Below, piece after piece: positions 10,445 through 36,700 of a DNA stretch of 37,890 nt. Under the pieces are notes generated by a model, which ran no database searches, was not told the origin of the DNA, and saw only the letters and a program-made list of their open reading frames with translations. Each line of letters opens with the position of its first letter. Position 1 is the stretch's first letter. This stretch comes from a virus (taxonomy: Duplodnaviria > Caudoviricetes): positions 1 through 37,890 of IMG/VR virus record IMGVR_UViG_3300005573_001184, one strand, 5' to 3'. The position numbers and the translations under genes were made by a program.

Positions 10445-10461
10445 GACTTCATGGCCTTACT

Positions 10462-12417: not shown

Positions 12418-15185
12418 AGGTACGCTTTTATGATGTCTTCCGTCATCGCCGCCGTTCTATCCCACGTGAACCGCCGGGCATAGGACTCGGCCGTCAGCGA
12501 ACGCCTCGTGTACTCTTTTGCTTCGAGTTCGGCGGTCGCCCGTAGAACATAAACGAGGTGTCCCGCGTCTGGCGCGGCCCATTTACCAGTTTTAGGATGA
12601 ACATCGTCATCGCGCAGGACTTCGGAATGTTTCACGTAGAACGCGAATGAATCGTCCGTGAACTCACGCAACCCCGCGTAGTTGATTGCAATCGGCACAA
12701 CTCCATGCGCCATGGCTTCTTGAACGTGAAGTTCCCAGCCGCCAGGAGCTGGATTTACAATAAAATGCAGTGAATCGTACCATTCGGCCATCTCTTCATC
12801 GGTCAGATACCTGTTGATGGCCACAAATCTACTGTCATTCGGCAAGTCAGGCCACGGCCCATCGTAGCCTTTGATCTGCAATTGGGCGAGACCAGGCTTT
12901 GGAAACGCTTTCACGAAGGCTTCAATGATCTGTTTCAACATCTTCCGCCGTTGTGACGGCTCGCTCATACGCATCGCGCAGCCGTACACAATGGGGATTC
13001 CGAACTTCCTGGGTTTTTTCCGCTTGTGCAGTCCGGTGTTAATGCCGAGATCAATCCTGTGTACTGGCACAATAACTCCGGAACTGACCATGACGTCGCG
13101 ACAGTAATTTGACGGCACGATAACACATCGCGCTTGGTTTAGCGTCTTTACGGCCTTGCGAGGGAGCGAACTGCTTTCCCAGATTGTTATCACAATGTCG
13201 CCGTCGCGTGCGGTATCCATTATGATGGGTATGGCGTCAAAAACAACTCTGCATTTTGCGCCCGTTGCGGACTCATGCAAGTTAAATGGATGCTTGCCGT
13301 ACGTTTCGTCAGAACGTGTCGGTACCCATACGGGCAGGACCGTCTTAAACCGTTTGGCCACTTCATACGCCCACCGTCCAATCCCGCTGTTGACGTCGCG
13401 AAGAGCGGCCCACTCTATAGTTGGCCGAAATTCAACGTCAGGTAACGGCCCACATGCACCGTAATTGAACCCCTCGTAGTTGAAAAAGCAATTCTGTGCA
13501 ATCGGCGTAAACTCCACGACCGCAGGTTTCCCCATCCCCACAGCAATCGCCAGCGGAGCGGATTGATTGCCGATGAATAGCGAACAACCGGCAATGATGG
13601 AAGCTGCTTCCATCAGGTCTTTTGTGGGTATATACGCAACGTCTCCACAGTCCGCCACAAACGCTTCGTACTCTTTCGGTGTACCGATAAACCCTGCTAT
13701 ACCTCGGTACTTTTCGATAATTTTCGGCCAAGGAAACTCTGGATTATGATAACGCAATGACCTCGCCATGACGACAGCAGGGGCTTTCTCGCTCGGCTCA
13801 GCCCAAAGCCATGGCGTCGAATCAATCCATGTCGGCAGACCACACTGTTTCAGATGAAGCGCAGACAACCGCCAGTGCCGGTGGACCCCAAGTTGTTCTC
13901 CGTGAATTAAGTGTCTGAATTCATCGAGCATGACCGCGTCTTTTGGCGGGCAGTCAGCAAATTCAGCGTCTTTGATGTAAGGCTGGTTTTTCAGAAGCGG
14001 GATGATCAGATCTGCGCGCTCTTTGGTCATCGGCTCGCGCGTGATATATGGCGCGGCGTCTTTGCATCTGGTCAGCACGATTTTACCGCCGCCAAGTGCC
14101 CTGATCGCGGGCAACGAGTAAATGATGTCGCCCAAATCGCCACTATGACAAAACACACGTTCGCTGCTTGCCGAAGTCAGCGGCAGACATTTGATCGTCG
14201 TTTGTGCGGATAACCGTGCTTCAGGCGGCTCAGTATCGGATTCGACATCTCGCGGATCATTTGTCGGTGGTTGATCTACATTTTTGGTTTCTGGAGCTAA
14301 TTCGGCATTAGCTTTTGTATCCCGTCGCGAAACCTCTGCAGTCGCGCCAGATTTGTCGCCATTGGTTGTCGTCGAAACTTTCTGGTCGGCTACTCCGCTG
14401 GGTTGCGGCTTGTCTTTCGCGCGAACGTCAGAGTCAAAGGACGTCGAAAGTAGGTTTACAACGTCACCGAACTTGTCGGTGTGCACGAGAACTGCGTTCG
14501 GGTTGATGTCGCTCTTTTCCGTCCATCTGAGCGGAGCGCGGTTCCTTCCAAGCCGGAACTGGATCAGATCAGTGCAGCCAATGTTACGCGGTCCGAGCAG
14601 CCGCGAGAGAACCACATCGAATGGCTTGTCCATGTTGTCGATCACGGCGTTGATCATCTCGCGCTGGAGAGCTTTTGAGTACACAGCAACCCCGTTCACG
14701 CCGACTGACGGCAACGGAGGCCTTCCTTTGATGCAGGCCCCGAACACGAGTTTCCCAGATTCCTTAAAGGCCTTGTACAACTCGGAAGTCCATGTGTTCT
14801 TAGTAGGCACCGAGTCTGGTTCCCAGAACAGCCACGCGTCAACGTCATATGTTTCAACCGCGTTGTACGCGCAGATGAACGCAGCGTTTGGCCCAGCCGG
14901 CCATTCCTTGCTTCCCGGGAACGCTAGCTGCGGCACAACCTCGACCCTGTCAGCCAGCGGTGAAGCAAGCTGTTTAAGCACGATGATCCTGTTGCCGCCG
15001 AGGTTGTCTGGCAGCAGGAGCATCACTCCTGCTTTAGGAGCTTCCAGCCTGCATGCCCAAGCAAGCGTTTTGATCGCAAGCTTGTAGTCCTCTCCGCAGA
15101 CCGGCATTACAAGGGCGAACCGCTTCAAGGGTTCATTATCCAGCAGTTCGACGGAAGTGATTCTAATGTTTCCTGGCTCGTCCAT
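12414..15185 (-). CDS. Three-domain glycosyltransferase: GT-A-like + GT9 heptosyltransferase-like + GT4 (GT-B)
   Basis: N-terminal WLFWEPDSVP/NGVAVY/FDV domain; S/T/D/P-rich linker; SGDLGDIIYSLP...LFIGNQSAPLAIA (GT9-like); C-terminal WES, GWELHVQEAMAHG, FTWDRTA (GT4-like). Confidence 0.8.
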   Translation of the reverse strand: MDEPGNIRITSVELLDNEPLKRFALVMPVCGEDYKLAIKTLAWACRLEAPKAGVMLLLPDNLGGNRIIVLKQLASPLADRVEVVPQLAFPGSKEWPAGPNAAFICAYNAVETYDVDAWLFWEPDSVPTKNTWTSELYKAFKESGKLVFGACIKGRPPLPSVGVNGVAVYSKALQREMINAVIDNMDKPFDVVLSRLLGPRNIGCTDLIQFRLGRNRAPLRWTEKSDINPNAVLVHTDKFGDVVNLLSTSFDSDVRAKDKPQPSGVADQKVSTTTNGDKSGATAEVSRRDTKANAELAPETKNVDQPPTNDPRDVESDTEPPEARLSAQTTIKCLPLTSASSERVFCHSGDLGDIIYSLPAIRALGGGKIVLTRCKDAAPYITREPMTKERADLIIPLLKNQPYIKDAEFADCPPKDAVMLDEFRHLIHGEQLGVHRHWRLSALHLKQCGLPTWIDSTPWLWAEPSEKAPAVVMARSLRYHNPEFPWPKIIEKYRGIAGFIGTPKEYEAFVADCGDVAYIPTKDLMEAASIIAGCSLFIGNQSAPLAIAVGMGKPAVVEFTPIAQNCFFNYEGFNYGACGPLPDVEFRPTIEWAALRDVNSGIGRWAYEVAKRFKTVLPVWVPTRSDETYGKHPFNLHESATGAKCRVVFDAIPIIMDTARDGDIVITIWESSSLPRKAVKTLNQARCVIVPSNYCRDVMVSSGVIVPVHRIDLGINTGLHKRKKPRKFGIPIVYGCAMRMSEPSQRRKMLKQIIEAFVKAFPKPGLAQLQIKGYDGPWPDLPNDSRFVAINRYLTDEEMAEWYDSLHFIVNPAPGGWELHVQEAMAHGVVPIAINYAGLREFTDDSFAFYVKHSEVLRDDDVHPKTGKWAAPDAGHLVYVLRATAELEAKEYTRRSLTAESYARRFTWDRTAAMTEDIIKAYL

Positions 15186-22888: not shown

Positions 22889-23341
22889 ATGAGCGAACAA
22901 CGTAGCAACGATGATGTGCAGACCGGGAAACAAAACCGCGATTGTCCGACGCAGGAAGCAGTAACGGAAAGCGAGGCGAACTCGCTGGTGGCCGACTTCT
23001 ATAGTTCGCTGCGTGCAGAGACGATCGTGCGCGTCAGTAACGGAGAAGCGCGGATTCTGTTTCCATTCCGAGACAGGCACAGCTACGCAGTTGAAATCCT
23101 AATTAGACGCGCAGGCGGTGAGTAGCTGCTGGACGACGCGGGCACTACATTCATGCGCCTGGACCACGACGTCGGCTGCGCTCGCTCACCGAGATTTGTA
23201 AACGCGATCGTGTTGCTGGCGCGGCCTTACGACGTGGATTTCGACGGCGCCGTGCTCAAAACGAATTCAAGCCCTGGTCAGGTCGTTCGCAGGATGCGGG
23301 ACCTGCTCGAGGCGATATTGGCAGTAAACGCAATGGTATGA
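22889..23341 (+). pseudogene. DUF1828-like gene interrupted by an in-frame TAG at 23123-23125
   Basis: The two ORFs share a frame. Joined they read RILFPFRDRHSYAVEILIRRAGGE*LLDDAGTTFMRL...LLEAILAVN, resembling the DUF1828 PF.D...i.i....y.l.D.G.T..L pattern. Confidence 0.6.
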
Positions 23342-23556
23342 GAACAAAGGCGAAGGATCAGACTGAGTCATCGCACCAGAATGTTGGTGCGGGGTTGCTC
23401 ACGAGAACAGAGCTGGCTCGCGAGCTTAAAATCAGTACGGCTACGATAACGCGGCTCGTCAAGCAAGGACTGCCGCACATTCCAGTCGGACCGCGCTCAG
23501 TGCGGTTCGATTTAACTGAAGTGGTGGCGTGGCTCAAAGAAAGGATTAGAGCATGA
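23338..23556 (+). CDS. Helix-turn-helix DNA-binding protein (excisionase/AlpA-like)
   Basis: LLTRTELARELKISTATITRLVKQGLPHIPVGPRSVRFDLTEVVAWL. Confidence 0.85.
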   Translation: MRTKAKDQTESSHQNVGAGLLTRTELARELKISTATITRLVKQGLPHIPVGPRSVRFDLTEVVAWLKERIRA

Positions 23557-24119
23557 AGACCCCATTGTTTTTCCCGTTCAGGTACGATTTGGCGATTGAG
23601 TTCGTCTCGCTCACATTGGCGCGTCACGGCAGGCAAAGGAGGATCGACGAGATCGCTGTGCTGGCATACCTGTGCGATCGCGTAGCCATTGCGCGGATGA
23701 ACAGGCCGATCATCGGCGGGCACTACGTCGCGACCCTGGATGGTCCCATGATCAGCGAAGTTTACGACATGCTTGACGCTGACACCATAGAGTTTCGCGT
23801 GCCGTACGCTGATCTGGAGCGGCCGTTCGCCAAACAGGACCTCTCAGTCAAGTTGTTGTGCGATCCGGACAGACAGGATCTCTCGGAAGAGCAATTTGCC
23901 GTAGTTACCGACGTCGGGGACAGTTTCGCTAACATGGCAAAGCATGAGCTGGAGAATTGGTGTGCGGAGAACTGTCCCGAATATGGTGACCTGACAGTAT
24001 CTGAGTTTACGCTCATCAGGCTCGACCGTGTGGTGGCGATTCTTGGGAAAACGAACAGGGAAATTGCAGAGATTACGCGGAAGGCCAACGAGCTGTCACC
24101 GTTGCCTTTTTTGGTTTAA
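23553..24119 (+). CDS. Panacea/SocA (DUF4065)-like antitoxin-domain protein, copy 1
   Basis: LAYLCDR..IARMNRPIIGGHYVATLDGPMISEVYD, LSEEQ...V, ELENWC..NCPEY. Confidence 0.75.
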   Translation: MKTPLFFPFRYDLAIEFVSLTLARHGRQRRIDEIAVLAYLCDRVAIARMNRPIIGGHYVATLDGPMISEVYDMLDADTIEFRVPYADLERPFAKQDLSVKLLCDPDRQDLSEEQFAVVTDVGDSFANMAKHELENWCAENCPEYGDLTVSEFTLIRLDRVVAILGKTNREIAEITRKANELSPLPFLV

Positions 24120-24134
24120 CCCGAACCCTGCAAC

Positions 24135-24722
24135 ATGGCAACGTCAATATCATTCCCGTTCAACTTGGACAAGGCTGTATCAGTGATGTGCAATCTGCTT
24201 GGTCGCTCCAAGGTGCCGGTTGACATCAACAGGCTTGTTACGATGCTTTACCTGATTGACAGGCACGCAATCGCACGGCGCAACTTTCCCGTGATCGGTG
24301 GCTCATATTACTCTACCGAGAGCGGGCCTGTGATTGGCGAGGCGTACGAAATCGTACTGTCTGAGGCTGCGTTCGGACAAGACGGGCTCCTGAACAGGTG
24401 GATTGCGCGCGACCTTGTCGGTTGGTGTGTGAAGCTGCAATCCGAATATCTGCCTGGATCGCTCGGCGGAGACGACATTCACATCGTGGATGTTGTGTAC
24501 AAGGGCTGGTCGGATTTGACTGCGCATGGGCTGCGCGTCTGGTGCAAAGAGCATTGTGCCGAGGGCATGCCGTACCAGGAGCCATTTGTGAAGATCGACC
24601 TTGAAAAGCTTTTCATGGTGCTTGGCAAGACGCCTGACGACTTTGGTGCGGTCAGGGAAAGGCTTGTTCATGGCATTCTCGCCGGTTCCACGCTGGCTCA
24701 AATGACAAAAATTTCTTCTTGA
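24135..24722 (+). CDS. Panacea/SocA (DUF4065)-like antitoxin-domain protein, copy 2
   Basis: FNLDKA...MLYLIDRHAIARRNFPVIGGSYYSTESGPVIGEAYE; clear paralog of the preceding gene. Confidence 0.75.
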   Translation: MATSISFPFNLDKAVSVMCNLLGRSKVPVDINRLVTMLYLIDRHAIARRNFPVIGGSYYSTESGPVIGEAYEIVLSEAAFGQDGLLNRWIARDLVGWCVKLQSEYLPGSLGGDDIHIVDVVYKGWSDLTAHGLRVWCKEHCAEGMPYQEPFVKIDLEKLFMVLGKTPDDFGAVRERLVHGILAGSTLAQMTKISS

Positions 24723-25746
24723 CAGAACTCCGGTTTTATGTTCTTTTTTGCGCGTGTATGACATACAGGTCTGGCGAAACGAGCCAAGGGAAGAACGGCA
24801 CAGCAGGTGCCGGCAGCCGGAGGCTTTTCTCGCTGGACTCACTTCTTATCGCTGGACCATTGGCCTCTTCTTTGGCCATTTGCGGAGCGTTGGCTTGCGT
24901 CCACCCAACCACACACATACCCTTGACACCGGCATCCTCCTACGTTCCGCGCATGACCGCGCGCTGTGCAGAACATCCGGAGCGCATGCACAGCGAGCCC
25001 GTGCATCAGCACGTTCCATTGGGCTCCCTTCCGCGGTGCTCCGGCGAGATTTCCTTGGGTGATGAACCCGCCGCGGGACAGGGTCTTTCTGGGATTCTTT
25101 CTTCCCTGTCCCGCCTTGAATTTTCCCATGGTACGGGGATATTCGTGCCAGTCGCAATGGCAGCGACAAGCCAATATCAGGCGTTGCCACCGGCGTGCTC
25201 AAGGTATCGATTGATACCATCGCCGGCCAGTTAGACCGAGGCGAAGCGAGCTGAATGCTCCGTAGGCCAGCCGTAGGGCGGTAATATCGGCCCTGGAAAA
25301 TCAACAAAGCGATTCCGTCCGGCCACGCAAGTGGAGAACCGGCCCGCGTCAGTCCTGCCCGGCAGGAAGGCTTTCTTGGTACCGTCACTAAGACGGCGCG
25401 CTTACCGCTGACCGCAGTGTGTCTATGAGCTGATACCAAGTCTGGCTTGCCAAACAAGCGGCGTACCCAACATCAACACGCCCCACCGCCAACCACAACC
25501 GGCGGGGCGTAGCGCCTTGCACACCAGCCCGCCTGCCAGTGCAACCCCGCTTCTCCACCCCGCCAAGCTCTCCCCGTTCCTTTCACCACGGAGTCGCCCG
25601 CACAGCCTCGCCGCACCGCCCGTTATTTTGCTGCGCCGCCTTTGCTTTTCTCCCCGCTTTCCTTCCCGGCGCCAGCACTGCCCTGTGGAGGTTTTCCCAG
25701 CTTCGCTCCGCCCTCGGCGGTGGCCCCTTCAACGCTGACGGAGGCT

Positions 25747-25980
25747 GGGGCCCCGGGGGGGTGGGGGCGTGGGGGCCGGGGGTCTGGCGCGGCGAAAGAG
25801 ATTCCCTACCGGCTGGGCTGGGCGAGCGGGCAGGGCGACCGGACCGACTGGGCGACCGACCAAGTGGCCGGGCTGAACCAGCCGGGCTGGTGGACCTGGC
25901 GGAGCGACTGACGGAGCGAGTGACCAGGTGACCGGGCTGGTGACTGGGCGCTGGTGGTGGCGACCGGGCCTGAGCACCGG
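25747..25980 (+). repeat. G-run cluster followed by degenerate GAC(C/T)GG-type short repeats (candidate packaging/terminus region)
   Basis: G7-T-G5-CGT-G5-CC-G5 at 25755-25782, then many GACCGG/GACTGG/GGGCTGG units. Confidence 0.5.
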
Positions 25981-26073
25981 CGCTGACCTGGCGCGCGCAT
26001 GGCCAAGCGCAGCCTGTGGAGCGCAGGCGCTCAATGCGCCAAGCTCCAGCGGCAGGAGCACTGCGCTGCAGCA

Positions 26074-26457
26074 CTACGCTCCTGGCGCTGCGGGCGATCC
26101 AGGCTCTGACTCTGGCTCTGGCGCCGGCGCTGCAGGCAATGCGGATGGCGTTGGCGCTGACTCCGCCGCCCCGGGCTCTACCAGCTCCAGCAACTGCATC
26201 CGAGCCGCTAATGCACGGTTCAGATGGCGGTAGGCACGCTTTGAGACCTTGGACGGCACCCGGACTCCAGGCAATGGGCGATTCATGGCGATGCGCTCAC
26301 GCTCGGCGGCGCAATCCCAAGCTTTGACCAGCTCGGCCACAGCATGGGATTGAGCTTTATCCGGTTGGCCATCAATGCTTTGGGCGAGTGCAAGCGCGAG
26401 TCGATAGACTTCGCGGCGGAGCGCTTTAGCTTCGGCGGCGGTGTAAGACGCACCCAT
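26074..26457 (-). CDS. Hypothetical helical protein, possible terminase small subunit
   Basis: 127 aa from MGASYT. Helical core (AELVKAWDCAAERERIAMNRPLPG) with a P/A/E tail. Same strand as terL and next to the G-rich repeat region. Function is inference only. Confidence 0.5.
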   Translation of the reverse strand: MGASYTAAEAKALRREVYRLALALAQSIDGQPDKAQSHAVAELVKAWDCAAERERIAMNRPLPGVRVPSKVSKRAYRHLNRALAARMQLLELVEPGAAESAPTPSALPAAPAPEPESEPGSPAAPGA

Positions 26458-26629
26458 AGTTTGGGGCAAGACTACCACAGAACCGACGGAAAGGCAAGCA
26501 AGGCCAGTTGGCATGGACGGCGGATTGGAAGGCGCAGGAACGCAGCGCAACGGCGGTCAGGTCTCTGGACGTCCGGCGACGTCCGGGCTGATGCGGTAGC
26601 AGCCTGGGCTTGGGCTTCCCGGCTGCGGC

Positions 26630-26721
26630 ATGCGTGATTTTCACGCATTGTGGTTGATTTTCACGCATCGCAAAGCGTTGGTGCGCAGAGGCTTACGGAA
26701 GTATGCGTGAAATTCACGCAT
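26630..26721. promoter_or_regulatory. Three palindromic operator/UAS sites ATGCGTGA-N3-TCACGCAT
   Basis: Perfect copies at 26630-26648 and 26703-26721; degenerate copy at 26650-26668. Confidence 0.75.
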
Positions 26722-26775
26722 TTCGGCTTTAGGCGCCGGCAAGGCAAAAAATCTACGATTTTGCAAGTCGTTGGC

Positions 26776-26788
26776 CATCAAGGGGTTG
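26776..26788 (+). promoter_or_regulatory. IHF-like binding site
   Basis: CATCAAGGGGTTG versus consensus WATCAANNNNTTR (1 mismatch), between the palindromes and the -24/-12 element. Confidence 0.45.
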
Positions 26789-26815
26789 GCGCCACAACCA
26801 AAGTAGCGCAAAAAC

Positions 26816-26831
26816 TGGCATGGCACGTGCT
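26816..26831 (+). promoter_or_regulatory. Sigma54-type -24/-12 promoter
   Basis: TGGCATGGCACGTGCT versus TGGCACG-N4-TTGCW; GG and GC correctly spaced. Confidence 0.65.
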
Positions 26832-26844
26832 TTTTTACCTGCTG

Positions 26845-26890
26845 CCTTGCCCGAAACGGCGCCCGGGCAGGGTCAAGTGAACCTGGCGCC
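26845..26890 (+). ncRNA. H-type pseudoknot motif II, copy 1
   Basis: Stem CCTTGCCCG/CGGGCAGGG, loop AAAC-GGCGCC, linker with TGAAC, distal GGCGCC, then AGGAG RBS. Confidence 0.6.
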
Positions 26891-26906
26891 ACAGGAGAAA
26901 GGAAAA

Positions 26907-27644
26907 ATGAACGAATCGCAACTTATCCGATTCAGGGCGGTCATCAGGTCGCTCAGCGAATCTACGGCGGTCACACTGACCGCCGAAGGGCTGGTCGCCC
27001 GCGTTAGTGGGCGCTGCTCGCCCTATCGCAGTCACCGAACGGTCAACCACCACTGGGTGGACAAGAAGGAAGGCTGGCACGCCGTCAACAATCGCTATCA
27101 GATAGTAATCAATCCTCCCTCGGAACTCGACATAGTCCCGATGTTGGGCGGGACGCATCCCCACCATAAGCTGCGGTGGGAGCGGCATTTGCTTCCACGC
27201 CCACTCCTGGAGCCGTTGCTCCAGGAATTCACTAGGTGGATCGGGGTTCGGTTTCCCCAGTTCCCACCGCTTGTGTCCTGCGCGCTCCCGGTGCCGGAGC
27301 TCGCGATGTTTACCGGCGGCGGCAAGCCGGTCTTCTGCTTCCAGTCAGCAGACTGGATCCACAATGAGTGCATTCAGGGCGAGGGCTGGCGCGCTTATCG
27401 CGCTGGAGACGAAACGCCGGACGATTGGCCGGTAATTGTTCCACCGGCAAACTTGCCGGGACTCGCAATCCTCGCCGGCGGGTGCCCCTCGGGCAACCCA
27501 ATCCAGTCGCCACACGGGTGGTACGACCGCCCATGGTCGCTGGTCGCAGTGAAACGTCCCGACGTGGACATCATGTCGAAGGCGGGGAGTGCCACCAACC
27601 TGCCTCTGGGCCGGTGGTGGATCACGGTCGATGACACGCACTGA
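26907..27644 (+). CDS. Hypothetical early protein, 245 aa (Trp/Pro-rich)
   Basis: ATG 26907 after AGGAGAAAGGAAAA. Confidence 0.75.
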   Translation: MNESQLIRFRAVIRSLSESTAVTLTAEGLVARVSGRCSPYRSHRTVNHHWVDKKEGWHAVNNRYQIVINPPSELDIVPMLGGTHPHHKLRWERHLLPRPLLEPLLQEFTRWIGVRFPQFPPLVSCALPVPELAMFTGGGKPVFCFQSADWIHNECIQGEGWRAYRAGDETPDDWPVIVPPANLPGLAILAGGCPSGNPIQSPHGWYDRPWSLVAVKRPDVDIMSKAGSATNLPLGRWWITVDDTH

Positions 27645-27650
27645 ATCTCC

Positions 27651-27688
27651 AGGACCGGCGGACCACAGCCCGCCGGTCCTTCTCGTTT
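27651..27688 (+). terminator. Terminator-like hairpin
   Basis: AGGACCGGCGG-N8-CCGCCGGTCCT then TCTCGTTT, 6 nt after the stop codon. Confidence 0.5.
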
Positions 27689-27689
27689 G

Positions 27690-27745
27690 CTGACCCTCGG
27701 CGCGGCGCCCCGGGCAACCGGGGTGCCGGGCCGGCGATCAGCCGG
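27690..27745 (+). ncRNA. Repeated structured motif I, copy A
   Basis: CTGACC-CTC-GGCGC-[GGCGCCCCGG GCAA CCGGGGTGCC]-GGGCCGGC-GATCAG-CCGG. Confidence 0.6.
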
Positions 27746-27820
27746 ACAAACGCGGTTACCTGCGCAAAGATCGGCCGGGCACAGCGCAATTACTTGCGCT
27801 GTTGCTTGCGCAGAGACGCA

Positions 27821-27863
27821 CTGCCCGCAAAGGCGCCCGGGCAGAGCACATGAACTAGGCGCC
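27821..27863 (+). ncRNA. H-type pseudoknot motif II, copy 2
   Basis: CTGCCCG-CAAA-GGCGCC-CGGGCAG...TGAAC..GGCGCC then GGAGG. Confidence 0.6.
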
Positions 27864-27881
27864 GGAGGAAAGGGAACAAAA

Positions 27882-28244
27882 ATGAACACTGGGTATAAGT
27901 TGGTTCGGGTGTACAAAGGCAGGAGATACAGCATGGCTTGCCCCCGTCAAGGGGAAGTCGAATACGAACCGGGGAAAGTGGTGCGGTCCCGCCCCGGGTG
28001 CGGTCCGCTTGCAGTGTTTGATTGCGAACAAGATGCACGCAGAGCATTCGACGCGTGCAGAGAGATGCACCTGGAGATGTGGCGGTGTGAGTACACTCGG
28101 ACCAAACGCCGGTTGATGATGCCGGACCGCAAGGTTTACCGGCTCTGGACGCGGTGGCAGTATTTGGTATGGGGGCCACCGCTGCCGGTGACACCCGGCA
28201 CCGACTATGCGGTGTCGGTGCGGTTGGTCGAGCGGATCGCCTAG
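27882..28244 (+). CDS. Hypothetical early protein, 120 aa
   Basis: ATG 27882 after GGAGGAAAGGGAAC; distant paralog of 30813..31355. Confidence 0.75.
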   Translation: MNTGYKLVRVYKGRRYSMACPRQGEVEYEPGKVVRSRPGCGPLAVFDCEQDARRAFDACREMHLEMWRCEYTRTKRRLMMPDRKVYRLWTRWQYLVWGPPLPVTPGTDYAVSVRLVERIA

Positions 28245-28264
28245 CCCCTCCACGGTCAGCGGCG

Positions 28265-28321
28265 CTGACCATCGACGCGGTGCTCTGGGCTGACCGGAGC
28301 ACCGGGCCGGCGGTTAGCCGG
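28265..28321 (+). ncRNA. Repeated structured motif I, copy B
   Basis: CTGACC-ATC-GACGC-[GGTGCTCTGG GCTGA CCGGAGCACC]-GGGCCGGC-GGTTAG-CCGG. Confidence 0.6.
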
Positions 28322-28364
28322 ACAAACGCGCAATTACTTGCGTGGTTGCTTGCGCAGAGACGCA

Positions 28365-28409
28365 CTGCCCGTAAAGGCGCCCGGGCAGGACAGAGTGAAC
28401 CAAGGCGTC
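28365..28409 (+). ncRNA. H-type pseudoknot motif II, copy 3
   Basis: CTGCCCG-TAAA-GGCGCC-CGGGCAG...TGAAC...GGCGTC then AGGAG. Confidence 0.6.
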
Positions 28410-28423
28410 ACAGGAGAAAGAAA

Positions 28424-29407
28424 ATGAGAACGATCACACTCAATTGCAATTCAGTCCTCGAGGGCATAGAGCTCCTCGAGGGTAGCACCCAGCTCGTAAT
28501 CGGGCTGGGCGAATCCGGGCGCGGGCGGCGGTTCACCGCCGTCCCCGTCCCGGGAAACAGCCGGATCCAGTGGATCCGGCATCCGGGCGAGTATGCTCGG
28601 CTTGTCTTTCCCAATGGGGCAACGAACTGGCCGGTGCCAGTTCGTGAGACCCACAACACCACCGATGGTTCCCGCTGGGAACCCGTCGTCGAATTCCGCG
28701 GCTGGGTTCTGGCCGCGGGACAAGCGGACAGCAACGACCTGCTGGTCCGGATCCCGGACCAGTCAGGGTTCCGGGGCTCGTGGTCGCTCGAGACCACGGG
28801 CCAGGTCATTCGCCTGGCGGAGGGCTTCTCCGCCCAAGGCGATGCGGGGAGAATGGGCGGCGGCCCGGACGTTTTGCTCCGGGTCAGTCCCGGGGCGGTG
28901 ATCACCATCCGCCGATCCGGTCGGCTCTACGGCAAGCCGGCCGTAGGCGTGTGGCGCTGGAACGGCGCCAGCCTCGAGCGGCGCGTCGAGGTGGTGGACC
29001 CATTGGGCGCGGGCGCTCCCGAGTGGGGGCGCGGGGAGCCCAAGCCGATGGCGAGCCAGTTCGCCCTCGGCGGGGGCGACTCAATCCAGACCGGCACCGC
29101 CGAGCAGTGCCGGGCCTACTTCCAGGCCGAGCGAGAAAGGATCGCTCGGCTGATCTCCGACTGGCTTGCGGGCGAATCGGCCCGCAAAGCCGAGGCCGAA
29201 CGGCGTGCGGCTGAAGAGGCCGCACGCAAGACGGCTGAAGAGGCAGCCGCTCGTGCGGCGGCTGAGGAAGCCGCTCGCCAACGCGAGCGCGAAGTTCGCG
29301 CCGCTTGCCAGTTCGCCGGGATTACCCCGGCGATATTCGCCGCCATGTCGCCGAAAGAACAACGTTTGGCGGTCCATCGGGCCCGGCTCGCCGGGCTCCT
29401 CAAGTAG
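28424..29407 (+). CDS. Hypothetical early protein, 327 aa, with C-terminal A/E/R-rich helix
   Basis: ATG 28424 after AGGAGAAAG; Gly-rich beta-type N-terminus, EEAARK-type helical repeats. Confidence 0.75.
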   Translation: MRTITLNCNSVLEGIELLEGSTQLVIGLGESGRGRRFTAVPVPGNSRIQWIRHPGEYARLVFPNGATNWPVPVRETHNTTDGSRWEPVVEFRGWVLAAGQADSNDLLVRIPDQSGFRGSWSLETTGQVIRLAEGFSAQGDAGRMGGGPDVLLRVSPGAVITIRRSGRLYGKPAVGVWRWNGASLERRVEVVDPLGAGAPEWGRGEPKPMASQFALGGGDSIQTGTAEQCRAYFQAERERIARLISDWLAGESARKAEAERRAAEEAARKTAEEAAARAAAEEAARQREREVRAACQFAGITPAIFAAMSPKEQRLAVHRARLAGLLK

Positions 29408-29415
29408 CCACAATC

Positions 29416-29455
29416 GCCCGCGGGAATGCCATGTCCTCGCGGGCAAACCTTTTTG
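29416..29455 (+). terminator. Terminator-like hairpin
   Basis: GCCCGCG-GGA...TCC-T-CGCGGGC followed by AAACCTTTTT. Confidence 0.4.
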
Positions 29456-29458
29456 GGA

Positions 29459-29514
29459 CTGATCTCCGACGCGACGTCCCGGTCATCCGGGACGCCTGGC
29501 CGGCGATCAGCCGG
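29459..29514 (+). ncRNA. Repeated structured motif I, copy C
   Basis: CTGATC-TCC-GACGC-[GACGTCCCGG TCAT CCGGGACGCC]-TGGCCGGC-GATCAG-CCGG. Confidence 0.6.
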
Positions 29515-29594
29515 GGCAACCCCGCGGTCAGTTGCGCAGACCGCGGAAACACGAACCAGCCGATAGCGCAGTCGGCACCGGAAAATATGGAAAA

Positions 29595-29984
29595 ATGAGC
29601 ACGCTAAATCTAACCCAGCATGTGGCAACGCCCCAGCAGATCGCTGACGGTGTTGTGGAACCGTCAGACGAAACCAAACAGCGCATCAAAGCGCTGTTAA
29701 CGTTCGAGGAAATTCCGAAGTGCGATGAAGTCGAACGTCGGGCAAACGAACTGGCCAGCATTGCCAAGGCCAGCGGCCACGCCAACGCCCTTATCGGAGG
29801 GGCGCCGTGGTTCATGGCGCCGTTGGAACGGGCGCTTGTGTATGCCGGCATCATGCCGGTGTACTCGTTCTCGCAGCGTCGGTCGATCGAGCGCATCGAC
29901 GACGCCGGGAAAGTCATTAAATCGACAGAGTTCGTTCACATCGGCTTCATCCCGGTGTGGGGAACGTTCCAACGCGGACGGTAG
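29595..29984 (+). CDS. Conserved phage protein resembling Csx20-type ring nucleases, 129 aa
   Basis: LNLTQHVATPQQ...ALIGG...PVYSFSQRRSIE...GKVIKSTEFVHIGF. The CDS is solid; the family resemblance is from memory. Confidence 0.6.
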   Translation: MSTLNLTQHVATPQQIADGVVEPSDETKQRIKALLTFEEIPKCDEVERRANELASIAKASGHANALIGGAPWFMAPLERALVYAGIMPVYSFSQRRSIERIDDAGKVIKSTEFVHIGFIPVWGTFQRGR

Positions 29985-29986
29985 CC

Positions 29987-30187
29987 ATGCGCGACAAGAT
30001 CGAATTGATCGTGGCGCTCGATACGCTTGAGGATGGCTTGCGCGAACGTATCGGCGCACGATTGCCTCCGGAGAACGTGCCGCGCAAGGCAGCGTTGCGG
30101 GCAATCAAACGACTTGCGCGAGACCAACAGGAGCTCAACAGAGCCCTCCAGGTCATGCGCAGAATGATCGCGAGATACGAACAATGA
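29987..30187 (+). CDS. Hypothetical coiled-coil protein, 66 aa
   Basis: ATG 2 nt after the previous stop; ATGA overlap with the next gene. Confidence 0.65.
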   Translation: MRDKIELIVALDTLEDGLRERIGARLPPENVPRKAALRAIKRLARDQQELNRALQVMRRMIARYEQ

Positions 30188-30381
30188 AGGCCAAGATCAT
30201 GATGATACTCGAACGCCGGGGCAAGTGGTATTACTTGCCTCAAACGATTGATGCCAGCCCCGGCCAGAAACTACCGAACGGCGACGTGATCATCGCCGTC
30301 GGCAACACCCGCCGCCAAGCGGAGATTACTTGCCGAATGCACAATGGACGCAATAGGAGGAAACATGCACAGGCACCTTAA
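30184..30381 (+). CDS. Hypothetical protein, 65 aa
   Basis: ATGA-coupled ORF in a tight run of small genes. Confidence 0.6.
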   Translation: MKAKIMMILERRGKWYYLPQTIDASPGQKLPNGDVIIAVGNTRRQAEITCRMHNGRNRRKHAQAP

Positions 30382-30586
30382 AAAATTAGTTGACACAGCG
30401 CGAAAACACGGGTATTATGCACCCGTGAAAGAGCACAATAAAATCATTCAGGAGATTGCGGATGACCTGTACCGGCACCGCAATGCGGAGGAAGCCTTAG
30501 ACTGCGCCATCTGCGATATGCTGCGGGAAGCAATCCGCGTGCTGGCACAGATCGAGGATCAACAGCAAAAACAGGAGACAAAATGA
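30365..30586 (+). CDS. Hypothetical helical protein (alternative leaderless GTG start at 30425)
   Basis: GGAGG RBS before ATG 30365; ATGA overlap with the next gene. Confidence 0.6.
   Translation: MHRHLKKLVDTARKHGYYAPVKEHNKIIQEIADDLYRHRNAEEALDCAICDMLREAIRVLAQIEDQQQKQETK
30390..30418 (+). promoter_or_regulatory. Near-consensus sigma70 promoter
   Basis: TTGACA-N17-TATTAT with upstream TTAAAAAATT. Confidence 0.65.
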
Positions 30587-30816
30587 GACTTTCAATCAAT
30601 TGGTATCCGACGCGGTCGTTCAACATGCCCGTCGGATGCAGCACAAACGATTTAAACCCGGACTATCCCTGTCTGGGCTGCGGGCAAATGACCTGCAGCG
30701 AGTCCGGATATTGTCCGGACTGCGAGGACGTTCGCTGCGGGCACTGCATGCGCCCGCTGGATCCGGACGGATTTTGTCCGAAATGCGATGAACCACCAAT
30801 GGAGGATACACGATGA
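30583..30816 (+). CDS. Small double zinc-ribbon protein
   Basis: CLGC, CPDC, CGHC, CPKC; AGGAG RBS. Confidence 0.7.
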   Translation: MRLSINWYPTRSFNMPVGCSTNDLNPDYPCLGCGQMTCSESGYCPDCEDVRCGHCMRPLDPDGFCPKCDEPPMEDTR

Positions 30817-31355
30817 AATCACGCAAAACACAACACGCCTTCAAAGCTTTCAGCTTTGATGGTATGAATTACTTTTCGTTGTCGATGCGGTGGCCCAACA
30901 GGTACATGTACCGGCTGGAAGAATGGAACGTGCCAGATAAATGCTGTGGACCGTTCTGCGTCACACTTCACGAAGCAACTGCGGTTCAGCTTGCCAAGCA
31001 AGAAAGTATCCGGGCAGCAACGCAAGTATGGAAGGTTGAATACGCCCCATCCAAAGAACAAGCAATGTGGGTGCACACCGGATTTAGAACCCGGTACAAT
31101 CCTAAAAAGTTGCCTGCTGGAACGGTGCTAGCAAGCGGCATACTGCTTGTAACGCCATGCTCGCCAATATTCGGCGCCGAATTCCTGCAATATCACCAAT
31201 GGTTCCGGGATAACTGGAACGCGGCACGCACCTTTATCGACCCCGCCTGTATTGCAGAACACGTAGCGGAGCGAATGAGCAGGACGTTAGGCCACCAAAT
31301 ACATCCGACAAGGATTTTAGAGCTCGTAGAGGATTATCTTAGTCGTTGCCTGTAA
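30813..31355 (+). CDS. Hypothetical protein, 180 aa
   Basis: GGAGG RBS, ATGA overlap; N-terminal part resembles the 27882..28244 product. Confidence 0.72.
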   Translation: MKSRKTQHAFKAFSFDGMNYFSLSMRWPNRYMYRLEEWNVPDKCCGPFCVTLHEATAVQLAKQESIRAATQVWKVEYAPSKEQAMWVHTGFRTRYNPKKLPAGTVLASGILLVTPCSPIFGAEFLQYHQWFRDNWNAARTFIDPACIAEHVAERMSRTLGHQIHPTRILELVEDYLSRCL

Positions 31356-31392
31356 TCTACTAGTTTGTAAACCCTAAAGACAAAGGAAACGT

Positions 31393-32718
31393 ATGAGCAC
31401 AGAAACCAACAATGAGCAAGTCGCACTAACGAAACCCGAAACGCAGCTGCCTGCTCCTGGACCGAGTATGGCGGTTGAAAAAGCGAGCGATCAGCAAGTG
31501 GCGCCAGCGGCGGCGCCGCCGGCTGATCCGCTCGAAGCCCGCGCCCGCGCTGTCGGCGAACTGTCGATCAGCGGCGTGGTTAAAGCGTCCACCCTGAAAC
31601 TGACAAAGCGGGAGAATGATGAGCTGACGGCGGATTTCCCAGACGAAGCGATCGAGTTGGGCGCTGGCGGAAACCCAACGTTGTTGTACATAAGCCATGC
31701 TTATCTAAGACAGCGCCTTAATAAGGTGCTTGGGCTCGGTGAAGCCGTCTTCATCGGACTCAAGCATTGGGCCGAAGAAAGCATGCAGAAAACGAAGTAC
31801 GGCATGCGCAAGGTAGTCCGCATCTATTACCAAGGCCAATTATTCGTGCGGGGCGTCATGGTCGGTGAAGGACTCGGGGACGCAATCTACTACCCCGATA
31901 ACGCCTCGCAGACGTACTCCGATTGTTTTGAGGCCGCCAAGAGCAACGCTTTCAGACGGGCCTGCAAGCACTTCGGTGTTGGTCTCCAGGTCTGGTTGCC
32001 AGAATGGATTGCTGGTTGGAAACAGCGGCACCCGGACAAACTCGCCGCGGCGTACGCCAAGGCGGGAATCCCGCCGACAGACGAAGACAAGGCTATAATC
32101 GACGCGTGGCGCGCTAAGCAGAAAGACGTCGTGGCTCATCCGGTTCAGCCGGTGGCAGAGCAGCCTGCGCAGGAAACTCCAGAAGAAAAACGGCAACGCT
32201 GGATAAAGATGTGCCTTGAGGCAGCTGGCGGTCAAAAGGCTATTGTTGAGGAAGTCCTGGAACTCATGGGCAAGCTCGAGCCGATGCAGGGGCTCGATAA
32301 CTTGCCGCTCGACGCTGTACCGAAAACCAAAAAGGAAGCTGATGCTATCCTCGAGGGCATTCGGGCACAGTACGAAGCCATCCAGACCGGGCTCGGCAAG
32401 GCGGATCGCGCCGAGCCTCCTGCTGAGACCGCGCCACCAGACGTTTCGGGCGCGCCAAGCCATGGCGATTCTGAGGTCATCCTCGAGGGAGCGCTGGCTA
32501 AGCTCTTGAAGAAGCCGGCAAAGAATGGAGGCATGCGCTATTCTGTCTGCGTCGAGCGCGAGCCCGGCGAACAGGGAGAATGGGCGGCAACGTTCGACCA
32601 ACAAGACGGTGCGCTGCTCGAATCGTTGCACGAGGGAACGCACATCAAAGTCCGTTGCGTCCACGGAAAGTACGGGCTGACCATTATCAAAAAGGGGATC
32701 ACCGTGGTCCAGCAATGA
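31393..32718 (+). CDS. Rad52/Mgm101(Sak)-like single-strand annealing protein with C-terminal extra domains
   Basis: YISHAYLRQRLNKVLG...EAAKSNAFRRACKHFGVGLQVW.PEWIAGWK; OB-like C-terminus. Confidence 0.8.
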   Translation: MSTETNNEQVALTKPETQLPAPGPSMAVEKASDQQVAPAAAPPADPLEARARAVGELSISGVVKASTLKLTKRENDELTADFPDEAIELGAGGNPTLLYISHAYLRQRLNKVLGLGEAVFIGLKHWAEESMQKTKYGMRKVVRIYYQGQLFVRGVMVGEGLGDAIYYPDNASQTYSDCFEAAKSNAFRRACKHFGVGLQVWLPEWIAGWKQRHPDKLAAAYAKAGIPPTDEDKAIIDAWRAKQKDVVAHPVQPVAEQPAQETPEEKRQRWIKMCLEAAGGQKAIVEEVLELMGKLEPMQGLDNLPLDAVPKTKKEADAILEGIRAQYEAIQTGLGKADRAEPPAETAPPDVSGAPSHGDSEVILEGALAKLLKKPAKNGGMRYSVCVEREPGEQGEWAATFDQQDGALLESLHEGTHIKVRCVHGKYGLTIIKKGITVVQQ

Positions 32719-32870
32719 TTTACGTGTGCCGAGCGGACGTGGCCGGGGAGCCTCCACCCCATCGCCTCATGCACTCCCATCGGTCTGGTAATCTGCGAAC
32801 CCACCACGCCGTTGTCTCCTGCGGCCTCTGGTGGGCGGCACACAAATCCAACGTGGAGAATGGCATATGA
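32715..32870 (+). CDS. Small hypothetical protein, 51 aa
   Basis: ATGA overlaps with both neighbours. Confidence 0.4.
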   Translation: MIYVCRADVAGEPPPHRLMHSHRSGNLRTHHAVVSCGLWWAAHKSNVENGI

Positions 32871-33658
32871 ACGAAACACAACATTGGTACAAACCGGACG
32901 GGACGCCCATGCACTTCGTCGAGCTTAAGACACGTGCTGGAACGCGTCCGACCACGATACGCGACGCGCGCCTTCTCGGGCTTTACCCTTCTGTGACGAC
33001 CGTGCTCAAGGACGTGCTGCGAAAGCCGGGCCTGGAAAGATACTTCGTCAGACAAGCTGTTCTGGCAGTTGCCACGGCGCCGGACATTCCTGGCGAATCG
33101 ATCGACGATAAGATTACGCGCGTGCTCGAGGTCGAGCGACAGCAGGACCAAGAGGGTGCACAAGCGCGCGACCTTGGGTCACTGGTGCATGAACTAATCC
33201 ACTCACATTTGATGGGGAAAGATTGGGGGCCGGGCGTTGACGAGCTCCCAGACGGACCAGCGTACCTTAAAGCGGCAATGTCCGCTATAGAACAGTTCGG
33301 CAAGGCAGTCGCTTCCGAATTTGTAGTGATCGGCCCCGGATTCGCCGGCACCGTGGACTTGCTGACAGAACGTGACGGTGTCAAAACCGTCATCGACTTC
33401 AAGACCTGCAAAGAACTTCCAAAAGCGTCATGGCCAGAGCATCGCTTGCAACTAGCCGCCTATGCCTCGCGCATCGGGGGTGTGACTCAGACCTGCAACG
33501 TGTATCTCTCAACGACTTGTCCAGGCGGCGTCATTCCTTGCGTCAATGAAAACTGGCAAAAGGATTACGAGGTCTTCAAGAAGGTGTTCGACGTCTGGTG
33601 CTGGATGCAGAATTACTATCCGGCGCCGAAACCTGAACAGCAAAGCAATGGAGCGTAG
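32867..33658 (+). CDS. PD-(D/E)XK exonuclease, partner of the annealase
   Basis: YPSVTTVL, GSLVHELI, FAGTVDLL, VIDFKT, LQLAAYA. Confidence 0.88.
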   Translation: MNETQHWYKPDGTPMHFVELKTRAGTRPTTIRDARLLGLYPSVTTVLKDVLRKPGLERYFVRQAVLAVATAPDIPGESIDDKITRVLEVERQQDQEGAQARDLGSLVHELIHSHLMGKDWGPGVDELPDGPAYLKAAMSAIEQFGKAVASEFVVIGPGFAGTVDLLTERDGVKTVIDFKTCKELPKASWPEHRLQLAAYASRIGGVTQTCNVYLSTTCPGGVIPCVNENWQKDYEVFKKVFDVWCWMQNYYPAPKPEQQSNGA

Positions 33659-33715
33659 CATGCACGAGCAAGAGCTGTTGATGGCAGCCTACATCGTCCT
33701 GCTGCTGACGGCGTA

Positions 33716-36700
33716 CTACTTGGCTTCCAGACGCTGAGCGTAGGCCTGCTTATCCCACTGCTGGCGTGTCATTATCATCGCGCGTTCGCGCAGGCGCGCC
33801 ATGACCTCGCGGACGCGCGCTTCCTTTTGCTCCGGTCGCTTGCTGTCGAATCCCTCCCGTTTCAACTGCGGCAGCAGGTATTTGCCCATCAGGTCGCCCA
33901 AGTTCCGCAGGTACATCTCTCGAAACTTGTCTGGCATCAAAATGTCCACCGCGCTTTTGCCGCTCCCAAAGTGGATGGTCGGGTTGTAGCCGCCGAGGTC
34001 GAGTTGATACGAATCAACAAGGTCGCGGACTTCGGGCGGTGCGGCTTGTCTCACCTCTCGAACACGGTCGAACTCAGCTTGCCGGCGTTTGCGTTCGAGG
34101 CCCGGCGTACGCTCAAATTTCTTGGGCGCCGTCACCTGCGGCAGCGCCTTGCGATACACCTCCGCCATGCGCGCGATAGGCAGTTCATCGAACAACACGC
34201 CGTACTGCTTGCGCGCTATGGCGTTCTGTTTTTCAACGACGTCTTCCCAGTACTTCTGGCTATAGACGTTCAACCCCAACGGCGTGAGCGCGCCGGCTGC
34301 AACCATCGCCGGCATGGTGTCTTCATCGTACGCCTCGCCCATGGACACAATGCCAAGTGGCGTTGCCCGGCGCATGATTAGATCTACCAGATTGACCTTA
34401 CGGCCAAGGTAGTCCTCGCCAATGGCAAATTCCCAAGGTCCGCTGACCAACGGCCCGGCGTGCCCCCAAAGCCACCGGATAATGGGATTGTCAATGCCAC
34501 CCTCACGGATCGATTTGCCTCGTCGCTCCCAGTCGGCGAGGCGCATGCCCAGCTTCAACCAACTGAGTATGACGTGGCTAAAGCCGATGTGGAACGAACC
34601 CCAGCGCGTGCGGACGATGACATCGAAGTTGCCTTTCGAGAACCGCCGCATGGTCTCCTCAGGCGATGAACCTTGGAGCAGGTCAGTAACGAACGCCAGC
34701 CCAATCCAACTGATCATCATGGTCGTGACAGCCTGTCGGGCGTGGGAAGCAGTCGGCGCGCTGGCAAAAATGTTCGCCAAAGCGTTCGCGCTGGCGACGT
34801 AGTATCTCGGTGCCAGCATTAAGATCGACGCTACGTCGCGTGCGCCCCGGCTCCAACCCATCAGGTCAAGCCGCGCTTGCCCCAGCAGGTTGCGGAGGTC
34901 CTCGAGCCCGCGGAAAGCGTTCAGCCTGCCTTGGCTGTCGTGGTAGGACTCACGCATCGTCTGCCACATGGTCAGGGCAAGGTAGTCGAGCGTCGCGGAA
35001 AATCCAGCGCTGCTCCGCCGGAACGCCTCGCCAAAGTACGCCGCTTTCGTGAATATATTGCTCATTCGCGCGGCCTGCAGGTATTCGATCGGCTCGCCCA
35101 GCGGGAACCCCATTTCGGACATTTCTCTGGCGAGCTTATCCCAATCCTTGCCCCGCTTCAGGAGCTCATCCAGGTAGTCAGGGTTCCTGAAGATCGCGTA
35201 GAACCCAAACGCGCATGCCTTGAAATATTCTCCAATCCGACCGCGTACCAGAAGCCAGGCTGCGCCCAGCACAGCAAGCGTCGCGTTCTGCGACACGTCA
35301 AGCGATAGCATCGCAAGTTTGGACGCGTCATTCGCCTCCAGGAACGCCTTGATTGTCCCACGGCGCTCGGCTGATACCCATTTGACGATTTTCTTCGCAG
35401 TCTCATAGTCGTAGAAGCGCTGGCTAAACGCACCGCGCTCGGGCCGGTAAAAGCCCGGCGGTCCAAGCTGCGCATGCTCCTCGATCGCCTCGAACTGCGT
35501 TGGGTACTTCTCCTTCAAATCACTGTCCAGCTTCCGGTAGGCCTTCTGCGCCGCTTTGGCCTGCTCCGGTGAAGTGGCGTTCTCAATTGCGCGTCTTGCG
35601 TCAGCGAGCTGCGGGAACGCGCTCTCGATCAATTGTCGTCTATAGTCCTTGACGGTCAGACCCTGCAAGGACGGCTCGCTCAGGAGCCGCTTGTTTATCG
35701 CGGTATCGTACAGACTCCTTATCTCGTGTGCTATCACCACGCGCAAGTCCGACGCATACTTCACGCCAGACTCAATGGCTCCGACTTGCGTTGGACTCCG
35801 GCGGAACCGCATGTGCGTGCCCACAGCAGACGGCACCGCTACGATTGGCACGCCGGCACGCGGCGCTGGCTCGAACAATGCCAACCGCGGGAAATGGACG
35901 ATAGTCCCAAGCGGCCCGCGGTTCTCCATGTTCACATCCATTACCTCGCCGGCCCGCTCGACGCCCTCTTTCTCCGCCAGATACCTGACCAATCCTTCAA
36001 TGTCGTTGGCGTACTGGATGGCAAGCTCGCTGATTCTCTTTGGCAACGGAAACAAGTTTGGCGACCGGAGGTGCGCCTCGATTATGTCGCTGGCGATTTC
36101 CCCGAGCTTGTGTTCCTTGATGAAGTCGTCAAAATTTCCGCCCTCGGTGAGAGCGTTGTAAACTTTGCGCGCAGCGGCTAACATTTCAGGATTGTAGTTG
36201 CCTTTCTTATCTGGCCCGAACGCGGCTGCAAGCTCACGGTACTTGTACGCCATCCACTGCGCGTGCCCGTTCACGATTGACTTCATCATGTTCGCCGCCG
36301 ACAAGGCAAGGTCGGCAGGATGCATGAAGACGCCCATAAACCGCCCGGGCGAGATCAATCGCCCAAGGACCGGAATTCGCTCGATGCCGCGAGCGTAAAT
36401 CTCCGATTTCAAGTCGTGCATGGGCGGCAAGGGTGGAAGGTCAAGACCGGTCAGCGGCAATGGCCCTCCGGGCGGCTTTGGCCCGGCTATCCAGCCTTTG
36501 CGCTGGAGCCAACCAACGATGTCGCCTTGGAAACCAGCCCGGCGGAGGGCATTGTGAACGAACGCAACCGCAGGGTGGACTATGCCAAGCTGTTGTCCGG
36601 CAGTGCTGCTGGGCTGCTCCGCAACAGGACGCTCCTTGGAGGCCCCAGAGGGCGCTTCCGGTTTGGCCGGGCCCTCTGGCCCTGCCTCCGGCTTCTTCTC

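Follow-up and report, generated by a model that had tools for sequence, protein, structure and literature searches.

A predicted pseudoknot repeated before consecutive phage genes

We analysed a stretch of 37,890 bases (the window) that represents one complete virus record of an uncultured hot-spring phage, IMG/VR record IMGVR_UViG_3300005573_001184, with a focus on a short RNA element of predicted pseudoknot structure, here called motif II, that precedes three consecutive genes. Its three copies lie where a plus-strand cluster of small genes lacking family matches begins, and this cluster by its make-up appears to resemble the usual early region of a phage. Copy 1 (26845..26890) lies in front of gene 1 (26907..27644, 245 amino acids, four relatives with 50-87% identity), copy 2 (27821..27863) in front of gene 2 (27882..28244, 120 amino acids) and copy 3 (28365..28409) in front of gene 3 (28424..29407, 327 amino acids), whose N-terminal domain is related to proteins in other phage-like loci. 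The products of genes 1-3 are mutually unrelated and matched no Pfam, PHROG or NCBIfam family, and a BLAST search gave no match to gene 3 among cultured phages.

An earlier note on this DNA had placed an H-type pseudoknot at each of these sites, and all three copies (43-46 nt each) were recovered there with the stems and loops it described. In copy 1, stem 1 (S1) pairs 26845-26853 with 26864-26872 (9-10 bp, one additional G-U pair being possible), loop 1 (L1) reads AAAC, and stem 2 (S2) pairs 26858-26863 with 26885-26890 (6 bp). The corresponding strands are 27821-27827/27838-27844 (S1, 7 bp) and 27832-27837/27858-27863 (S2, 6 bp) in copy 2, with CAAA as L1, and 28365-28371/28382-28388 (S1, 7 bp) and 28376-28381/28404-28409 (S2, 6 bp) in copy 3, with UAAA as L1. 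Loop 2 (L2) has zero length and loop 3 (L3) contains UGAAC in 3/3 copies, and the sole S2 change among them is a G-C pair that became G-U in copy 3, again as the note had it. The same holds for the Shine-Dalgarno (SD) sequences, read from the sequence at 26893..26897 for gene 1, 27864..27868 for gene 2 and 28412..28416 for gene 3 (all on the plus strand), which start 2, 0 and 2 nt past S2; the AUG follows S2 by 16, 18 and 14 nt, respectively. The copies are non-coding: for two genes the reading frame extends back through the copy, and the relatives of both begin at the AUG that follows the copy. The idea that the copies encode N-terminal extensions was dropped for this reason.

A strict descriptor of this arrangement, including the SD, gave three matches in the window and none in 200 dinucleotide shuffles, which yielded six matches when the SD requirement was lifted. 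There was no fourth copy in the window, in which a covariance model scored the three copies at 72-80 bits and the next site at 10 bits. One point absent from the earlier note is that GGCGCC is self-complementary, so that two direct repeats of it pair automatically. The three window copies showed no compensatory change at any pair. Because of the GGCGCC palindrome and the lack of a covarying pair, the window alone does not prove stem 2.

A counterpart in a distant phage and the search for relatives

Loci were fetched by protein homology (22 viral loci for gene 3, 79 for gene 4, and 29 genome loci for the gene-3 family), and the first 101 fetched loci (668 kb) were scanned with a descriptor blind to the L3 sequence. 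Sites were found in six of these loci, with two sites in L146, a distant phage fetched via homology to gene 3. The two L146 knots (L146a and L146b) lie in consecutive intergenic regions, the first of which precedes the gene-3 homologue, so the knot occurs in three consecutive regions in the window and two in L146. They have an L1 of 3-4 A, an S2 of 7 bp, an L2 of zero length and an L3 of 13 nt, with the AUG 15-16 nt past S2. Both carry UG(A/G)A three bases before S2, although the descriptor ignored the L3 sequence. Their S2 strands are non-palindromic and their stems differ from the window copies at most pairs. Stem pairs of the five copies were counted by coordinates.

Between L146a and L146b, 5 of 19 pairs differ: two by compensatory changes (one in S2) and three by one-sided changes, with none broken. 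The first and third pairs of S1 (G-C and C-G) are identical in all five copies. Across the five copies, five G-U pairs and no A-C pairs are internal to the stems, which favours an RNA fold of the plus strand. Covariation, for which the earlier note had looked to homologues, is thus present as two compensatory changes, but in a phage that counts only as a structural look-alike. In 5/5 copies the SD lies outside both stems and the AUG 14-18 nt past S2.

Beyond these loci, the motif II region was present in two DNA runs labelled hot-spring metagenome and listed for no RNA run. In one of the DNA runs (run X2), a contig carried a copy with 7 differences over 55 nt; the start behind this copy reads MNEASLK, which is the N-terminus of P0027, a 50%-identical relative of gene 1; another contig from a hot-spring run had a copy behind a different, U-rich upstream sequence. 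The strict descriptor with SD, applied to 335 loci (1.14 Mb), found only the two L146 sites and their re-fetches. Pattern scanning of metagenomes gave 14 stretches, namely the window itself and 13 that lacked stem 1 and were judged chance. In viral contigs, no convincing knot was seen with S2 fixed among 119 listed loci of about 140, and with S1 fixed (43 loci, 30 distinct matches checked by eye) none had S2; an L146-type pattern scan gave 17 loci, none but L146 itself. A BLAST search with the motif against cultured phages and plasmids returned only partial matches, with E of at least 1, and 60 stretches (about 1.1 Mb) from 26 of 50 related virus records held no new copy.

Several candidates were rejected. 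L065 resembled motif II and sits in a coding frame. Model R1 matched three of five bacterial genomes at E<=0.01, and all three sites were discarded, one (L397) as antisense to a coding frame and without an SD, the others (L398, L399) as lacking S2. Knot candidates in L141 and L148 lie inside open reading frames (ORFs), and those in L147 and L354 were put down to chance on their search output only. Other SD-near or intergenic knots, with geometry unlike motif II, were seen in L213 (two sites), L254, L313 and L316.

Knot-like structures were also observed at 3829 of L142 and 6201 of L143 (plus strand), with an S1 of 7 bp, an S2 of 5 bp and UGAA or UGGA, each overlapping an ORF end. Over the preceding 25 codons the two loci differ by eight synonymous changes only, while the part shared by knot and ORF differs by five non-synonymous changes and one synonymous change, and the changes in the stems keep pairing. 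Both loci also contain hammerheads in their arrays. These structures may represent a third knot lineage.

The earlier note did not recognise motif II as SAM-II, preQ1, guanidine-III, SAH or pistol, and Rfam 15 also gave no family: no match in the window reached gathering score and none of the 14 matches at E<=10 overlaps a copy, a comparison whose sensitivity to small knots is limited since Rfam covariance models leave out pseudoknot pairs. The L146 knots are also without a Rfam match; neither of the two matches at E<=1 in seven loci falls on them. No description of motif II was found in the literature searched, which took in six supplementary files of Fremin 2023 but not its other three or the supplement of Weinberg 2017, either of which could hold it.

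Genomic context and the same slot in related phages

Upstream of copy 1 lie three copies of a 20-nt palindromic repeat (26630..26722, repeat family D7), an IHF-like site (26776..26788, plus strand), and a sigma54-like -24/-12 promoter (26816..26831, plus strand). The IHF-like site has one mismatch to the consensus, and the palindromic repeats are, to judge from their position, likely activator (enhancer) sites of the promoter. The promoter is one of two plus-strand matches in the window and the only sigma54-like site in front of a window copy. Copy 1 starts about 14 nt below the -24/-12 box, and so would sit at the start of the transcript; with the spacing that we assume for sigma54, the predicted start falls at about 26841-26844, a few bases from the copy. 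L146a also lies below a sigma54-like box (L146 3889-3903) with an IHF-like site present, and is about 15 nt further from the predicted start. In another virus record (G023), we counted 11 sigma54-like boxes versus none in the reversed control. There was no sigma70-type promoter at the motif II copies; the three such sites in 25000-34000 are all beyond 30300.

A terminator-like hairpin with a weak U tract follows gene 1 (27651..27680, plus strand), and L146b directly follows a strong one. Motif II copies 2 and 3 are preceded by a separate multi-stem repeat, motif I, whose copies A (27690..27754) and B (28265..28330) are followed by copy C (29459..29526) further downstream, all on the plus strand; there is no motif II after copy C. 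Motif I contains a variable hairpin with covariation and, in addition, a hairpin with a loop able to pair upstream. Judged by eye, the scaffold of motif I is similar to the twister-P1 consensus, without the UAA and GAGGG of twister. No copy of it turned up in other loci, and it had no Rfam match; one more variant is present in runs X1 and X2.

Gene 4 (29595..29984, plus strand, 129 amino acids) gave a weak match to Csx20 (E 1e-5, below cut-off) and is possibly a ring-nuclease-like anti-defence protein directed against type III CRISPR; phage csx20 homologues are mentioned in PMC13551039. It had 177 related stretches in viral contigs. It lacks a clear SD, and the place of motif II ahead of it is taken by two hairpins with complementary loops (29520-29580), which follow motif I copy C. 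Elsewhere in the window, a family scan identified the large terminase, DnaB helicase, a DNA methylase, an Mgm101-like recombinase and an exonuclease, among others. Two tandem SocA/Panacea-domain antitoxin genes are found behind a helix-turn-helix (HTH) gene in the replication cluster (23553-24722), and genes for a cytidylyltransferase, a radical SAM/SPASM protein, two glycosyltransferases and a methyltransferase adjoin the terminase on the minus strand (10028-15185). This latter cluster possibly serves virion or DNA modification.

The slot taken by motif II in front of gene 3 is filled in different ways in related phages. Among 41 loci with gene-3 homologues, five (about two lineages) had a hammerhead core within 130 nt of the start, five had a sigma70-like promoter, five had one of two other repeats, L146 had the knot, and the remaining loci had none of these elements. 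Hammerheads thus precede relatives of the gene-3 N-terminal domain in several loci (L138, L140, L142, L143 and L148), and a knot in one. A type I hammerhead descriptor found 21 sites, duplicates included, in related loci. In L138, L140, L142, L143 and L269, hammerheads repeat before consecutive SDs, some of them right after a terminator-like hairpin.

Additional repeated elements were seen in these loci. Hammerhead-like RNAs, most of them below Rfam gathering scores, formed arrays of up to five in L269, L256, L138, L140, L142, L143 and L148, with an SD after each RNA, and twister-P1 matches were found in the neighbouring loci L293 and L150. In L150, L154 and L302, a multistem element bounded by GGCTAGG and CTCAACC is repeated before consecutive SDs; its only match was a weak one, to RAGATH-36 at a single copy (29 bits versus a cut-off of 70). 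Two more unnamed repeats lie directly 5' of the SDs of gene-3 homologues, one in L292, L293 and L298 and the other at 1958 and 4001 of L137.

Motif II belongs to a known kind of arrangement, in which each intergenic region of a variable phage gene cluster carries one structured element, as in hammerhead clusters, PeSLs (promoter-stem-loop cassettes) and the DUF1874 motif. PeSL cassettes of T4-type phages are reportedly also the subject of work by Arbiol and colleagues from 2010. The clustered phage hammerheads (Perreault et al. 2011, PMC3088659) are likewise placed one per intergenic region beside the starts of changing genes, whereas motif II has a different fold and lacks the hammerhead core. 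PeSLs (Comeau et al. 2014, PMC4122927) are short and repeated, lie among small variable genes and act there as exchange points; they are composite terminator/promoter units, whereas motif II is an SD-adjacent pseudoknot. The DUF1874 RNA motif (Weinberg et al. 2017, PMC5737381) also occurs in consecutive intergenic regions and potential 5' untranslated regions (UTRs), but is a multistem structure with a conserved internal loop, in contrast to the two-stem knot of motif II.

Motif II repeats might also serve as gene-exchange joints, as PeSLs do. A run X2 contig joins 26872 to 28456, that is, the copy-1 region to the inside of gene 3; a second joint, 27885 to 29558, is covered by just 30 letters on one side. 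The first of these joints hints weakly at such a role.

Possible functions of motif II

We consider it the best reading, with a probability of roughly 40%, that motif II is a constitutive pseudoknot leader that would shield the 5' end of each cistron and keep its SD open, whatever gene follows. Starting from the observed repeat, geometry, SD position and L146 covariation, we infer a transcription start, read-through, processing, tertiary contacts and protection as follows. The sigma54-like promoter would start the early transcript almost at copy 1, and this transcript would read through the terminator-like hairpins before its cleavage or trimming between the genes. Likely braced by the UG(A/G)A of L3 against the conserved first and third pairs of S1, the knot would form the 5' end of each gene's message, like the hairpin left by a cleaved hammerhead in related phages, and the repeats would likely double as recombination joints that swap the gene behind them. 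In vitro, transcript fragments of 2 kb are cut by the clustered phage hammerheads, for which a role in producing single-gene messages was proposed (PMC3088659). Motif II would work in the manner of exonuclease-resistant RNAs (xrRNAs; MacFadden et al. 2018, PMC5760640), pseudoknotted structures that stop 5'-3' nucleases, including bacterial RNase J1, in vitro. Apart from the constant position of the SD outside both stems, this reading is consistent with the predicted openness of the SD, which at 65 C was equal or higher with the knot locked in 6/6 sites. A further idea, that motif II shields the 3' end of the upstream gene, was dropped, as there is no gene ahead of copy 1 or L146a in their transcripts.

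Several observations weigh against a protective leader. The gain in SD openness is partly built in, because locking bases removes pairing partners; at 37 C three of six sites (copy 3, L146a and L146b) showed no gain and a fourth showed a small one, and copy 1 had a less open AUG region once the knot was locked. No cutting agent was identified for copies 2 and 3. A flush 5' cap would not apply to L146a, in which the start predicted from sigma54 would leave about 15 unpaired A-rich bases 5' of stem 1. RNase J1 is stopped by the ring-like fold of xrRNAs and not by stability alone, so that true exonuclease blocking by motif II would be a guess; the flaviviral xrRNAs have a three-way junction, form a ring around the 5' end and reside in the 3' UTRs of eukaryotic RNA viruses (PMC5760640). 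The L146 knots go undetected by the covariance model built on the three window copies, and the L3 word was relaxed from UGAAC to UG(A/G)A only once L146 had been seen, so that L146 may be convergent; it is a close structural match with a shared gene neighbour, of unproven common descent. Finally, motif II is rare, as the viral and metagenome pattern scans gave no additional true copy among the matches listed.

It is unlikely, though conceivable, that motif II is instead an operator at which a phage repressor binds the knot beside the SD and shuts the early genes off together, in the manner of T4 gp32 or Aca2 at their own leaders. The same fold abuts the SDs of several co-expressed genes, within the likely 30S footprint, and gene 4 of the cluster is weakly Csx20-like. 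The T4 gene 32 operator is itself of H-type, with a zero-length L2 and a 1-nt L1. As with motif II, a phage pseudoknot lies there upstream of a start site and is bound by gp32 (PMC10690425), and Aca2 blocks ribosome binding via a structured motif in the 5' UTR (PMC13551039). However, the gene 32 operator occurs as a single copy before the gene for the single-stranded DNA-binding protein (SSB) that it autoregulates, whereas motif II has three copies, an L1 of 3-4 nt and unrelated genes behind it, and there was no SSB family match in the three downstream genes. Moreover, no candidate protein was identified: genes 1-3 are without family, and the sole HTH protein found (23338-23556) belongs to a different cluster. 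The divergence of the stems between the window and L146, and the hammerheads and plain promoters that occupy the slot elsewhere, also argue against a repressor site.

Somewhat less probable still is a translation enhancer, in which initiation at the adjacent SD would increase through recruitment, by the knot, of ribosomal protein S1 or the 30S subunit (standby), without any role in stability. The constant spacing from knot to AUG in 5/5 copies fits this explanation, and tisB mRNA needs a 5' pseudoknot for binding of S1 and 30S (PMC7708055). In tisB, however, the standby site is needed as the ribosome-binding site is sequestered 100 nt away, whereas the SDs here are strong, purine-rich and adjacent to the knot, and have no obvious need of help.

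A small self-cleaving ribozyme of a new kind, which would cut the early transcript into single-gene messages, appears improbable, as does the specific form that such a ribozyme might take, namely a 45-nt H-type knot with a UG(A/G)A core, interchangeable with hammerheads and staying as the 5' end of each message. Hammerheads in the same slot before the same gene family and the twister-P1 matches in L293 and L150 point in this direction. In addition, searching near such genes yielded the ribozymes pistol, hatchet and twister-sister (PMC10085705). Against this, the window and L146 copies have only about seven bases in common (two S1 pairs and UGRA), and motif II matches no Rfam ribozyme. About seven shared bases are few for a catalytic core. 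In HDV-like (hepatitis delta virus-like) and theta ribozymes, two pseudoknots are nested, and P3, L3 and P1.1 lie between P2 and the 3' strand of P1. Membership in this group was ruled out, as L2 is 0 nt in all five copies and leaves no space for P3, and P1.1 is also lacking. The hammerhead core words (CUGAnGA, GAAA) are absent from the motif II copies, the type I descriptor found no sites in the window, and membership in pistol or twister was dropped. Motif I, upstream of copies 2 and 3, is larger and more elaborate and may be the better ribozyme candidate.

Equally doubtful is a function at the DNA level only, with motif II as a recombination or protein-binding site (attC-like) and pairing as a by-product of palindromes. 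The inverted repeat of S1, the GGCGCC palindrome and the contig that joins the copy-1 region to the inside of gene 3 would agree with this, and for another motif that occupies consecutive intergenic regions, Weinberg 2017 brought up a role like that of attC (PMC5737381). However, the L146 S2 strands are non-palindromic with a compensatory change, the wobbles are G-U on the sense strand, and the position of the element is tied to the SD. There was also no integrase family among 34 ORFs scanned, although some integrons have no integrase nearby.

H-type knots are common aptamer folds, and the earlier note had suggested a riboswitch-like element, a translational enhancer or a nuclease-blocking 5' cap; an operator for a protein and a slot in common with self-cleaving ribozymes were not among its proposals. 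The H-type knot outside Rfam, repeated per cistron, stands, but a riboswitch function is poorly supported: the least probable reading is an ON-type riboswitch whose ligand would stabilise the knot and free the SD, as modelled by the higher predicted openness of the locked SDs of copies 1 and 2 (from 0.37 to 0.79 and from 0.49 to 0.81, respectively) and by a 4-bp alternative helix over part of the SD in copy 1, because the SD is never inside a stem (0/5 copies with the SD in S2, the trait of the translational H-type riboswitches SAM-II/V, preQ1 and guanidine-III), the downstream genes are unrelated, swappable and not tied to one metabolite, the SD-blocking helix is not shared, copy 3, L146a and L146b show no gain at 37 C, and few loop bases are conserved. 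In size, topology and SD proximity, motif II is like the SAM-II/V, preQ1-I/II/III and guanidine-III aptamers, but it differs from them in having no Rfam match and no linked metabolic or transport genes.

The weight of these findings is limited by the rarity of motif II, which is known from two lineages, possibly three. Nevertheless, both PMC3088659 and PMC10085705 call it unknown why ribozymes or other structured RNAs stand ahead of successive early genes in phages, and a 45-nt knot in the hammerhead slot before the same gene family allows a direct comparison, with cleavage, 5' protection or translation as the shared output. If motif II cleaves, it would be a new ribozyme class; were it to stop RNase J, phages would have a natural equivalent of xrRNAs, and a hot-spring virus would have supplied a compact stabiliser of mRNA.

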